A DNA stretch of 64,000 nucleotides from NCBI GenBank assembly GCA_019057475.1, contig DXJO01000041.1, positions 114,217 to 178,216 on the forward strand, written 5' to 3'. Numbering within the stretch: the stretch's first letter is position 1; every line of letters begins with the position of its first letter. Under the pieces are notes generated by a model. The model made no database searches. It saw only the letters and a program-made list of their open reading frames with translations, and was not told the DNA's origin. Shown piece by piece: positions 6,333 through 9,239 of this stretch. This DNA is from Candidatus Thorarchaeota archaeon. GTDB taxonomy: Archaea; Asgardarchaeota; Thorarchaeia; Thorarchaeales; Thorarchaeaceae. The position numbers were made by a program, and so were the translations under genes.

Positions 6333-7466
6333 ATGCATCCCATCTTAGAAGAGGTCCTGAAGTCATCAAACGCAGGACGAAAGGCGCAAGTTAGTAGGGC
6401 GGCGAAACGAACCATCAAGAATACTACATCAGATGAAGAGATAGCAGCCATTCTTGAGGAAGTTAGTGCCAGAATCTTGGTTGTGGGCGTAGGTGGAGCC
6501 GGTAATAATGCCGTGACCCGCTTGATGGATGTTGGAGTAGAGGGGGCTGAAACTCTTGCGGCAAACACGGATGCGCAAGACCTCTATTTCTGTAACTCGC
6601 ATCATAAGCTGCTCCTTGGTAGGGACACCTGTGGAGGTTTGGGAGCAGGTAATGATCCTGATGTAGGAGAAGCTGCTGCAGTTGAATCGTACGAAACAGT
6701 CAAGGATGTCGTAAGAGGGGACCTTGTCTTCATTACCGCGGGGATGGGTGGAGGTACAGGTACCGGTGCGGCACCAATCATAGCAAAGGCTGCAAGAGAG
6801 AACGGCGCATTGACTGTGGCCATAGTATGCCTTCCTTTTGAGGTGGAAGGCAAAACAAGGAAGAAGAACGCTACCAGAGGGCTCAACGCACTGATGGAGC
6901 ACGTGGATACGCTGATAGCGATTCCCAATGAGAAGCTCTTAGAGATTGCTCCTGACCTCTCGATGCCAGAAGCCTTCATGGTTGCAGACGAAGTTCTGGT
7001 CCGAGCAGTCAAAGGAATTGCAGAGTTGATTTCGAAGCCGGGGCTGGTGAATCTTGATTTCGCAGATGTCCGGACGACGATGAAGAACGGTGGGGTTTCA
7101 CTAATTGCGCTCGGTGAGGGTCAAGGAGAGGAACGGGCCGATGAAGCAGTATATAATGCTCTGAGGAACCCACTGATTGATGTGTCAATAGACAATGCAA
7201 GGAACATCCTAGTCAATGTGAGTGGGAGCATGGACATGCAGCTTATCGAAGCCAAGAGGGTAGTAGAGCTCGTTACAGAACAGGTCAATCCGGGTGCAGA
7301 GGTAATATGGGGAGCACTCATTGTACCAGAGCTGGAAGACAGAATCAGAGTAACGATTATTGCCTCAGGCGTGAGTTCCCCCTATGTGTTTGACTCTGAA
7401 ACAACACCGGTCACACCTCTTGCAGATGATCTCAAGACGGACCTCGGAATACCTCGCTTGAGCTAG
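6333..7466 (+). CDS. ftsZ: Cell division protein FtsZ (FtsZ1-type context)
   Basis: GGAGNN, GGGTGTG, NLDFAD; upstream of secE-spt5. Confidence 0.97.
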   Translation: MHPILEEVLKSSNAGRKAQVSRAAKRTIKNTTSDEEIAAILEEVSARILVVGVGGAGNNAVTRLMDVGVEGAETLAANTDAQDLYFCNSHHKLLLGRDTCGGLGAGNDPDVGEAAAVESYETVKDVVRGDLVFITAGMGGGTGTGAAPIIAKAARENGALTVAIVCLPFEVEGKTRKKNATRGLNALMEHVDTLIAIPNEKLLEIAPDLSMPEAFMVADEVLVRAVKGIAELISKPGLVNLDFADVRTTMKNGGVSLIALGEGQGEERADEAVYNALRNPLIDVSIDNARNILVNVSGSMDMQLIEAKRVVELVTEQVNPGAEVIWGALIVPELEDRIRVTIIASGVSSPYVFDSETTPVTPLADDLKTDLGIPRLS

Positions 7467-7567: not shown

Positions 7568-7744
7568 ATGGGCATTGGCAGCTTCATCAGGGATGGCAGA
7601 CGAATATTGAAATTGGCCACGAAACCATCCAGAAAGGAGTTATGGATGAGTGCGAAGATTAGTCTGCTTGCAATGTTCCTCGTAGGATTGCTTAGCTTTG
7701 GCATACAATACCTGATGACAGTACTCACTTACACCTGGCAATAG
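7568..7744 (+). CDS. secE: Protein translocase SecE/Sec61gamma (not in ORF track)
   Basis: Manual translation MGIGSFIRDGRRILKLATKPSRKELWMSAKISLLAMFLVGLLSFGIQ...: the KP..E motif plus one TM helix. Confidence 0.92.
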   Translation: MGIGSFIRDGRRILKLATKPSRKELWMSAKISLLAMFLVGLLSFGIQYLMTVLTYTWQ

Positions 7745-7799
7745 TAGTTTCAGCCAGACTACTAGACACAAGCGTTTCGTGCTTAACGGAGGCATTTAG

Positions 7800-8489
7800 T
7801 TGCAATCAAGAACCAGCGTATATGCAGTGCGTACAACGATTTCACAGGAGAGATCTGTAGCTGATCTCATCACTACAGCAGTGGTTGGTGAAACTGACAT
7901 ATGGGAATGCCCATTCTGCTCGGAGCAGTTTGCGTCAGACAAAAGCACTAAGAAGCATATGAAGAAGAGCTGCAAGAAAGCGAAAAAGAAGAAAGGAGAA
8001 CCAAAACTAATCTCCCGGAATCAGTTGCTTGGTCGTGTCAAGGCGATACTGGTTCCCGAAACTCTCCGAGGTTATGTTTTTCTGGAAACGCTAGAGTTCA
8101 GGGACGTTGAGTTAGCCATCTCCGGAGTGCCGCACGTGCGCGGTAGAGTCAGCGGAAAGGTGAGCTTTGAGGAAATCGACAAGTGGTTGAAGCCAAAGCC
8201 CGCTGCTGAAGGTATCATGATAGGCGATGTGGTCGAGATTATCTCAGGGCCATTCAAGGGAGAAAGAGCACGGGTTGCGCGAGTAGACGCAGCCAAGGAA
8301 GAGCTCATACTGGAGTTGCTGGACAGTCCACACACCATTCCCATTCGTGTGCATGCTGACTTCGCGAAGATCGTCGAGAAAGCACACAGAGAGGAACCGA
8401 AAGAAGGTGACGAGACTGATGAATCCGGGGAGAAGAAAGATGAGCTCGATGATGATTCTTTCTGGGCGCATCAACCAGACTTAGCCTGA
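7800..8489 (+). CDS. spt5: Transcription elongation factor Spt5/NusG with inserted zinc finger and acidic tail
   Basis: NGN (YAVRTT, LRGYVFLE) plus KOW (GDVVEIISGPFKGE); insert CPFC-x12-H-x4-C. Confidence 0.95.
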   Translation: MQSRTSVYAVRTTISQERSVADLITTAVVGETDIWECPFCSEQFASDKSTKKHMKKSCKKAKKKKGEPKLISRNQLLGRVKAILVPETLRGYVFLETLEFRDVELAISGVPHVRGRVSGKVSFEEIDKWLKPKPAAEGIMIGDVVEIISGPFKGERARVARVDAAKEELILELLDSPHTIPIRVHADFAKIVEKAHREEPKEGDETDESGEKKDELDDDSFWAHQPDLA

Positions 8490-8633
8490 AAGCACAAGTC
8501 AACAACCTGACTGGTCAAACGCACGGGCGACCCAACGCAATGCTTAAAACCAGTTCTCCATGGGGGAGGTCTGCTCCTTAATCTGACATGAGCGCATAGA
8601 CGCCGTGTCCGGGGTGAAAACAGTTGAAATTGA

Positions 8634-8718
8634 ATGCAGTAGATCTTGTGGGATGTAAAGCTGATTTTGTCCTGCAGGTCGACCCAAACGGTACAGCGAT
8701 GTGCCAATTGCACTGCAT
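8634..8718 (+). promoter_or_regulatory. Candidate structured 5' leader (three-way junction) of the L11-L1-P0-P1 operon
   Basis: ATGCAGT(8634-40)/ACTGCAT(8712-18) closes two hairpins, 8642-8680 and 8690-8705 (GCGA tetraloop); ends 2 nt before the GGAG RBS. Confidence 0.45.
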
Positions 8719-8735
8719 CAGGAGAAGTGACAAAT

Positions 8736-9239
8736 TTGAGTAGTCAGAAAATAACTGTTGAGGCCATGGTAGAGGGTGGTAAAGCTTCAGGTGGGCCTCC
8801 AATTGGTCCCGCGCTGGGGCCGACCGGAGTGAACATCTTCCAAGTGGTCACCAAGATCAATGAGGTGACTGCACCTTTTGCAGGACTCAAGGTACCCGTG
8901 AAAATAATCGTTGACCAAGACACGAAGCAGTTCGAGGTTGAGGTTGGCACTCCACCTACCAGTGCCCTAATTCTAAAGGAAATCGGAGCAGAGAAGGGCT
9001 CAGGTGAGCCAAATACAAACATAGTTGGTAATCTTACGATTGACCAGATTAAGACCATTGCCAAGGGAAAAGCAGACCACCTGTCGGCGTTGACAGTGAA
9101 GAATGCAGTCATGATTGTTTCAGGCACCTGTGTTTCAATGGGCGTGACAGTTGAAGGCAAGGCACCCAAGGAGTTCCAGCAGGAAGTCCGAGAGGGTCTT
9201 TGGGATAGCCAGCTTGAAGGCGTGCTGAAGGAGGAATAG
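8736..9239 (+). CDS. rpl11: 50S ribosomal protein L11
   Basis: GGKASGGPPIGPALGP, GTCVSMGVTV; TTG start at 8736 (upstream ORF extension is spurious). Confidence 0.97.
   Translation: MSSQKITVEAMVEGGKASGGPPIGPALGPTGVNIFQVVTKINEVTAPFAGLKVPVKIIVDQDTKQFEVEVGTPPTSALILKEIGAEKGSGEPNTNIVGNLTIDQIKTIAKGKADHLSALTVKNAVMIVSGTCVSMGVTVEGKAPKEFQQEVREGLWDSQLEGVLKEE

Follow-up and report, generated by a model that had tools for sequence, protein, structure and literature searches.

The window analysed here, a stretch of 64,000 nucleotides from contig DXJO01000041.1 of a Candidatus Thorarchaeota archaeon, carries on its forward strand the gene of the transcription elongation factor Spt5, and the NGN domain of this Spt5 is interrupted by a family-specific insert of 45 residues. 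The insert features a predicted zinc finger of the C2HC type, a run of lysines, and a return segment that leads back into the NGN domain—a module that is confined to the family Thorarchaeaceae among the Asgard families sampled. The family-specific inserted zinc finger can be regarded as real with high confidence. Spt5/NusG is the one transcription factor that all cellular life shares, and the usual description of archaeal Spt5 is that of a bare NGN–KOW protein. A sequence-only reading of the window had named the gene Spt5 and had placed inside its NGN domain a finger of classical spacing with Cys as the last ligand; the gene, the position, and the spacing all stand.

The open reading frame at 7800–8489 codes for 229 amino acids, with the stop codon within this range. 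On the archaeal Spt5 equivalog TIGR00405 (cut-off 69.95), the whole protein reaches 146.5 bits, and Pfam detects Spt5-NGN (PF03439) with 59.4 bits in two stretches and one KOW motif (PF00467) with 29.6 bits. The Pfam NGN match covers just residues 70–130 and a short N-terminal piece, and TIGR00405 likewise matches in two stretches. Residues 2–25 of the solved archaeal Spt5 of P. furiosus and M. jannaschii pair with residues 6–28 of the window protein (the query), and their residues 30/33–153 with residues 80–200. The interruption of the NGN domain is real, since these two query segments align to near-contiguous parts of the solved proteins. The flanks are those of the sequence-only reading—QERSVADLI at residues 16–24 in the helix α1 and VKAILVPE at residues 80–87 in the next strand—and its estimate of approximately 50 residues between them agrees with the 52 residues counted in this α1–β2 loop. 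The loop has 7 residues in the sister family and approximately 7 in solved archaeal Spt5, which leaves a net insert of 45 residues. Measured with two half-profiles on 136 archaeal Spt5, each representing a cluster at 50% identity, the α1–β2 linker has a median of 5 residues. Pfam splits the NGN domain, and the insert goes unreported by standard annotation. The quoted peptide WECPFCSEQFASDKSTKKHMKKSCKKAKKKKG corresponds to residues 35–66 of the reading frame (nucleotides 7902–7997, forward strand) and carries the motif W35-x-C37-x2-C40-x3-F44-x8-H53-x4-C58, followed by KKAKKKK. The parts of the module are located as follows.

7899–8033, forward strand: family-specific insert of 45 amino acids in the α1–β2 loop (residues 34–78), missing in the sister-family genome G311 and the other Asgard families sampled.
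7902–7973, forward strand: predicted C2HC ββα finger core from W35 to C58, as judged by AlphaFold2, Foldseek, profile search, and ligand conservation.
7908–7910, 7917–7919, 7956–7958, and 7971–7973, forward strand: codons of the finger ligands C37, C40, H53, and C58, respectively.
7974–7994, forward strand: lysine tract KKAKKKK (residues 59–65), variable within the family.
8001–8033, forward strand: return segment PKLISRNQLLG (residues 68–78), conserved, with a predicted strand at residues 69–72 into NGN β2.

The distribution of the module was determined by a search of 400 Asgard genomes, in which f1 denotes the GTDB family of the window, Thorarchaeaceae, f2 its sister family with the single genome G311, and g the genera of f1. 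Matches extend over query residues 1 to approximately 225 in 84 of the 85 f1 genomes, whereas those of G311 and all other Asgard matches listed begin only at query residue 73–89. Sequences that were read directly carry the module in all 16/16 f1 genera; G311 features the plain loop TTVNTDKIAG-VKAILVPE, and 12 Spt5 from other Asgard families have a plain loop too. The 45-residue module was acquired by the common ancestor of one GTDB family. A survey of Asgard Spt5, put forward in the sequence-only reading, hence finds the insert in one Thorarchaeal family and not in the other Asgard families sampled, and a general Asgard trait was rejected. Among the best 150 Spt5 representatives (50% clustering), the Cys pattern is found in only 2, one of them a fragment.

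Conservation was counted over 122 clusters at 90% identity. The C/C/H/C residues are conserved in orthologues, the reverse of what the sequence-only reading had named as refuting it: C-x2-C-x12-H-x3-C occurs in 117/122 clusters, and the ligands C, C, and H are invariant across the 16 f1 genera, the fourth Cys being replaced by Glu in g6. Conservation reaches or approaches 100% in the columns of W35, C37, P38, C40, F44, H53, M54, and C58. Judged by its columns, the finger has a constrained scaffold with a freer surface. Four of the 122 clusters hold C, C, and H without the fourth Cys (P0052, P0054, P0055, and P0093, which take in all three g6 genomes, namely G322 L031, G320 L060, and G321 L061), and three of these four have Glu exactly at the position of that Cys. 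In two of the four, another His follows the ligand His at a distance of 10 residues. The protein AFV1p06 was shown by experiment to bind zinc with Glu as the fourth ligand and to bind DNA as well (PMC3541406), so that the Glu-bearing site of g6 may plausibly hold zinc too. In the return segment, P68, S72, N74, L76, and G78 are invariant.

The strict finger motif has 4 occurrences in the 2.34 million residues of open frames of the whole genome, taken as an estimate of chance. More decisive against chance than this rarity is its conservation: 117/122 clusters and each of the 16 f1 genera keep the motif. The profile of the insert gives no significant match to a second copy elsewhere in the genome, the next best match having an E-value of 0.5, and the insert being a copy of another finger gene in the genome was rejected on this basis. 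A canonical C2H2 motif, FKCRTCGKEFAYHKAFQKHRKAH, is present in an open frame of 132 amino acids at G000:C29:256930 (L051). It is the sole other convincing classical finger in the strict motif scan and is unrelated to the Spt5 insert (E 7.8).

AlphaFold2 was run on Spt5 with an alignment of 92 sequences and gave a mean predicted local distance difference test score (pLDDT) of 79; the whole-Spt5 model matches 3P8B, 9BCT, and 4ZN1 at E-values of 1e-13 to 1e-15. The insert has a pLDDT of 84–87 (about 86) and features strands at residues 34–36 and 43–44, a helix at 47–56, and then a strand at 69–72. Folded alone, it shows the same elements as in the full model, with the return strand at 42–45 in insert-only numbering. 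The ββα finger expected from the letters alone is thus predicted both in context and in isolation. Foldseek against the PDB returns almost exclusively classical C2H2 fingers (BCL11A, Tramtrack 2DRP, ZNF423, Kaiso, CTCF, and MYST C2HC), and the model superimposes on Tramtrack 2DRP with a root-mean-square deviation of 1.0–1.1 Å over 26 residues; the E-values are above 1, as expected with so short a domain. In VIA-align, which is independent of Foldseek, the best match is AFV1p06, with a Z score of 4.1 and 42/45 residues aligned. A search of the PDB with the insert profile yields INSM1 at E 3e-6, where several fingers are summed, and single fingers at 0.007–0.03, with SUPERMAN at 0.007. The insert has the ligand spacing of the classical C2H2 finger with an aromatic residue at −2 and F/Y at +4; the second His as the fourth ligand is absent, and Cys (Glu in g6) stands in its place. 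The predicted fold makes the insert a C2HC variant of the ββα fold class—of the same class but not a Pfam member. The call of a finger is based on motif, conservation, and predicted fold, with Pfam, NCBIfam, and Foldseek remaining sub-threshold for the approximately 25 residues alone.

These results bear on two further readings of the insert. A near-neutral expansion of the loop, with a Cys/His pattern that neither binds zinc nor has a function, is very unlikely: the α1–β2 loop being an insertion hot spot, the deletion of the finger in one cluster, and the loss of the fourth Cys in g6 would fit it, but W, C, P, C, F, H, and C are (nearly) invariant in 16 genera while the neighbouring surface drifts, the replacement in g6 is a Glu that is known as a zinc ligand in AFV1p06, and AlphaFold2 folds the insert confidently. 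The spacing C-x2-C-x12-H-x3-C is also that of UBZ4/NEMO-type C2HC fingers. The f1 consensus satisfies C-x2-C-x11-12-H-x3-C, the window itself having H-x4-C, and weak matches are seen to FAAP20 (E 0.21) and SLX4 (E 0.29) in the profile search and to TAX1BP1 (E 4.8) in Foldseek. A UBZ-like finger that binds a ubiquitin-like protein is nonetheless extremely improbable, as none of the three matches is significant (E 0.2–5). The Pfam families of ubiquitin (PF00240) and E2 (PF00179) were not found in the 96%-complete genome, in searches for which the control genomes were uninformative in both cases. With the sequence and fold matches insignificant, the UBZ reading was set aside as unsupported.

The second subunit of the complex, Spt4, is encoded outside the window at G000:C18:72365–72565 (L048:1498–1710, minus strand). 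It has 70 amino acids, features CxxC...CxxC, scores 40.5–42.6 bits, and lies 3' of rpoE' in the usual setting rpoE'–spt4–S24e; Elf1 is likewise present in the genome. Each of the 35 f1 genomes sampled contains Spt4. The separate zinc protein that the sequence-only reading took as normal for archaea is hence retained with its CxxC...CxxC intact and still brings zinc of its own, and a replacement of Spt4 in cis by the insert was rejected, since Spt4 is retained, intact, and in its usual setting. Among 121 Asgard genomes, the Spt4 domain match spans 195–201 nucleotides in 35/35 f1 genomes and 174–186 nucleotides in the others, with the exception of family f26, which has its own expansion. The alignment resolves this difference into a loop of 8 residues that occurs in 8/8 f1 genera versus 0/13 other Asgard families: f1 reads GIVVIL-PGRNPKD-DP-R-KTSYIAERL where the sister family reads GLVIII-DP-EGSHIAQRL. 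The loop sits between the Spt5-interface strand and the interface helix.

In M. jannaschii, the sheets of Spt4 and NGN join edge to edge to form one antiparallel sheet, Spt4 contacts the NGN helices α1 and α3, and Ser39 at the start of the Spt4 helix bonds Glu46 of Spt5 (PMC2896526). The equivalent of this Spt4-contact Glu in the window is E96, the sole invariant column of the 92-sequence Spt5 alignment. Since the insert lies between α1 and β2 and the Spt4 loop between interface strand and helix, topology implies that finger and loop should be neighbours at one corner of the heterodimer, at a distance from the clamp-binding cavity.

The insert is read, with moderate confidence, as a zinc-stabilised knob on that side of NGN where Spt4 binds, which would support the dimer and enlarge the surface that faces the DNA exit. 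Taken as a whole, a real family-specific finger that serves as Spt4-side buttress and DNA-exit surface, with a lysine contact in most genera, is the best reading and is somewhat favoured. The knob would buttress the Spt4/5 dimer and lengthen the dimer surface along the DNA-exit path, and the lysine run would, in most genera, add a nonspecific electrostatic contact to the upstream DNA or to other nucleic acid close by. Knob and lysine contact would tune the stability of the elongation complex without reading of sequence. NGN grips the clamp coiled-coil of RNA polymerase with a hydrophobic cavity and bridges the cleft, and in P. furiosus the residues H12, R64, H65/66, and R67 touch the upstream duplex (PMC11162788); by alignment, H112 and R114 of the window Spt5 are the equivalents of the DNA-contact residues H65 and R67. 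Pol II complexes have their DNA lined by Elf1, NGN, and Spt4, with Spt4, NGN, and KOW1 encircling the upstream duplex; the archaeal DNA-exit tunnel is predicted to be open, with KOW1 lacking the eukaryotic insertion (PMC6150629).

The net charge of the 12 residues past the fourth Cys ranges from +1 to +8 with a median of +6 (117 clusters). The lysine tract of the sequence-only reading is thus present in the window and in most genera, and it fails as a constant feature of the family. Its loss in two genera makes the finger and the return strand, and not the charge, the constant element. In the window, the tract is encoded by the A-rich run AAGAAAGCGAAAAAGAAGAAA. Close relatives vary in the number of Lys/Arg and by one residue in the length before C58, which fits replication slippage. 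The window Spt5 is unusual in carrying one extra Lys that turns the H-x3-C of most relatives into H-x4-C.

A number of observations weigh against the preferred reading. The placement of the finger beside Spt4 and DNA is deduced from topology only, and the α1–β2 loop is at the end of helix α1 opposite to the equivalent of the P. furiosus H12 DNA contact. The lysine tract is near neutral in g8 (SKRTTEVE) and acidic in g16 (QMAEGED). Exposed positions of the finger helix vary within f1, which argues against a base-specific reading. Both observations make the nucleic-acid contact proposed in the sequence-only reading, taken as plain DNA binding, less compelling. As finger and Spt4 loop have a single origin each, finding them together counts as one evolutionary event and does not amount to statistical co-variation. 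Pfam finger models stay under their cut-offs (zf-C2H2_4 17.8–20.7 bits against 27, zf-C2H2 13.9 against 25.2), and the hidden Markov model scan for zf-C2H2 proposed in the sequence-only reading accordingly came out negative. Lastly, one of the 122 clusters, P0058, has the finger cleanly deleted (ETDIWEC-KGEPKLIS; 209 amino acids, 86% identity). P0058, a metagenomic cluster, comes from a JGI contig of 3680 nucleotides, and its deletion is either natural or an error of assembly.

Two alternatives to the preferred reading differ from it in what the knob touches. A purely structural buttress, by which the knob and the Spt4 loop stabilise NGN or the heterodimer without a third-party contact, draws on the thermal stabilisation of NGN by Spt4 (PMC2896526), on the mapping of insert and Spt4 loop to the interface elements α1/β2 and interface strand/helix, and on the tolerance of the α1–β2 loop, which accommodates unrelated inserts in some dozen further clusters of archaeal Spt5. 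It leaves the strongly basic tract of most genera (median +6) unexplained, the other Asgard lineages sampled do without such a buttress, and it is decidedly unlikely. At the other extreme, the finger, the lysine run, and the Spt4 loop would jointly wrap the upstream DNA and give the Thorarchaeal RNA polymerase a closed DNA-exit tunnel, which is unlikely. If true, a closed tunnel, so far known only from eukaryotic Pol II with its KOW1 insertion, would have originated independently in an Asgard lineage.

The acidic C-terminal tail past KOW that the sequence-only reading had noted is present at residues 197–229 and includes two parts.

8388–8453, forward strand: acidic, poorly conserved tail (residues 197–218), with pLDDT below 50 for residues 198–220 and a mean column entropy of 2.05 bits.
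8454–8465, forward strand: invariant D-S-F-W motif (residues 219–222), [DE]SFW in 120/122 clusters, top-residue frequency 1.00.

Of the family-specific additions, DSFW is the best conserved. In g16 it becomes GFW, and the sister family f2 ends in VFD. The acidic tail with DSFW (window 8388–8465) looks like a short linear docking motif, and in the closed-tunnel reading the invariant acidic DSFW tail could be a switch or a partner-recruiting motif. In other Asgard Spt5, too, the C-terminus is an acidic run that Phe or Leu closes, as in EEEEEEFHL, EEEGFE, and KEVFFKL; solved euryarchaeal Spt5 end soon after KOW and have no tail.

The tail also enters into a reading based on protein docking, in which the finger, perhaps with the Spt4 loop or DSFW, recruits a partner without touching nucleic acid; a chromatin protein or histone, a termination factor, and the ribosome are candidates. 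Single C2HC fingers often mediate protein contacts, and the structural neighbours of the insert include MOZ and UBZ-type fingers. In addition, the finger scaffold is conserved with the basic tract dispensable in two genera, and the Spt4 loop and DSFW, as two more family-specific features, suggest a remodelled interaction surface. Docking is still rather unlikely: the exposed positions of the finger helix vary in the family, which is unusual for a fixed protein interface, and no candidate partner was identified.

Outside the insert, the host Spt5 and its gene feature the parts expected of the archaeal protein.

7788–7792, forward strand: ribosome-binding site GGAGG, 7 nucleotides 5' of the TTG start, from reading of the sequence.
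7800–8489, forward strand: spt5 coding sequence (TIGR00405, Pfam NGN and KOW).
7815–7898, forward strand: first part of NGN with strand β1 and helix α1 (residues 6–33), aligned to solved Spt5; AlphaFold2 strand at 6–12 and helix at 17–29.
8034–8198, forward strand: second part of NGN (residues 79–133), by alignment to 3P8B and 4ZN1.
8223–8303, forward strand: KOW motif (residues 142–168 by Pfam), PF00467 with 29.6 bits; AlphaFold2 strands at 144–193.

In the model, the strands of the KOW barrel extend to approximately residue 193. The start codon is TTG in the window and ATG at the same codon in other genera. With one NGN match in the 3.34-Mb genome (96% complete), Spt5 is single copy. The gene order is ftsZ (6333–7466), secE (7568–7744), spt5, and then rpl11 (L11) and rpl1 (L1), the neighbours being confirmed by Pfam, and the cluster ftsZ–secE–spt5–L11–L1 is the usual setting for archaeal spt5. 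The window gene is the canonical single-copy Spt5 of the Thorarchaeon and belongs fully to archaeal Spt5. A long noncoding gap (window 8490–8760) separates spt5 from the conserved part of rpl11. The Pfam L11 N-domain begins at residue 39 of the longest rpl11 reading frame. The true rpl11 start is probably well 3' of 8646, because the L11 N-domain match begins only at this residue.

The α1–β2 loop is a recurrent insertion site in archaeal Spt5. About a dozen other 50% clusters among the 136 archaeal representatives have unrelated inserts of 25–158 residues there, and none of these inserts has the Thorarchaeal finger. Inserts of 38–158 residues are found in P0146, P0143, P0218, P0267, P0157, P0183, P0124, P0234, P0226, and P0270; the one of P0146 resembles an extra KOW motif (GDLVEITDGDKKGARGVV), and the one of P0218 features CxxC and a C/H/H pattern. 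The Spt5-like proteins P0229 and P0264 carry CxxC-x10-CxxC further along NGN, at positions 108/111/122/125 and 74/77/88/91, respectively, and these CxxC pairs could be a different zinc-ribbon insertion.

A whole Asgard family has remodelled both Spt4/5 subunits at what should be one corner, with a finger fold of eukaryotic style, rare among archaea. Should the module contact upstream DNA or bring in a partner, it would serve as a natural experiment on the way a basal elongation complex acquires regulatory surfaces—a question that bears directly on the evolution of the elaborate eukaryotic DSIF. No description of the Thorarchaeal Spt5 insert was found in a literature search that did not cover subscription journals, and a survey of 218 Asgard proteomes for Spt5 and Spt4 does not report it (PMC13289920).

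Compared with known systems, the window Spt5 is closest to canonical archaeal Spt4/5 (P. furiosus 3P8B/3QQC/8OKI, M. jannaschii 3LPE/4ZN1, and T. kodakarensis 9BCT), with which it shares NGN and KOW, the Spt4-contact Glu (E96), the equivalents of H112/R114, the separate zinc ribbon of Spt4, and the synteny secE–spt5–L11–L1. Unlike these, the Thorarchaeaceae system has the 45-residue finger module, where the canonical loop has approximately 5–7 residues, the 8-residue Spt4 loop, and the acidic tail ended by DSFW. The archaeal virus protein AFV1p06 (2LVH) features, like the insert, a single ββα finger with a structural extension, and its Glu as fourth ligand recurs in g6; it differs in being a free-standing viral protein, the identity is 17%, the Z score of 4.1 is below homology level, and the fourth ligand in the window is Cys. 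The inserts of Aquifex and Thermotoga NusG sit in another NGN loop than the Thorarchaeal insert. Both NusG proteins (Aquifex aeolicus 1M1G/1NPP and Thermotoga maritima 2XHC/2LQ8) are among the fold matches and provide a precedent for a lineage-specific domain inside NGN, although the bacterial inserts far exceed the Thorarchaeal one in size and are no zinc fingers, and NusG has no Spt4 partner. The S1 insertion domain of metazoan Spt6, described in 2026, is a predicted C2HC finger of approximately 50 residues (PMC13289920). Like the insert, this predicted finger is clade-restricted and interrupts a conserved elongation-factor domain, while factor and host domain are others, the protein is eukaryotic, and the surface is electronegative. 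The KOW1 insertion of eukaryotic Spt5, which closes the DNA-exit tunnel (PMC6150629), differs from the Thorarchaeal insert in sequence and position, both being unrelated, and may be an analogy to it in placing a basic surface by NGN/Spt4 near upstream DNA.

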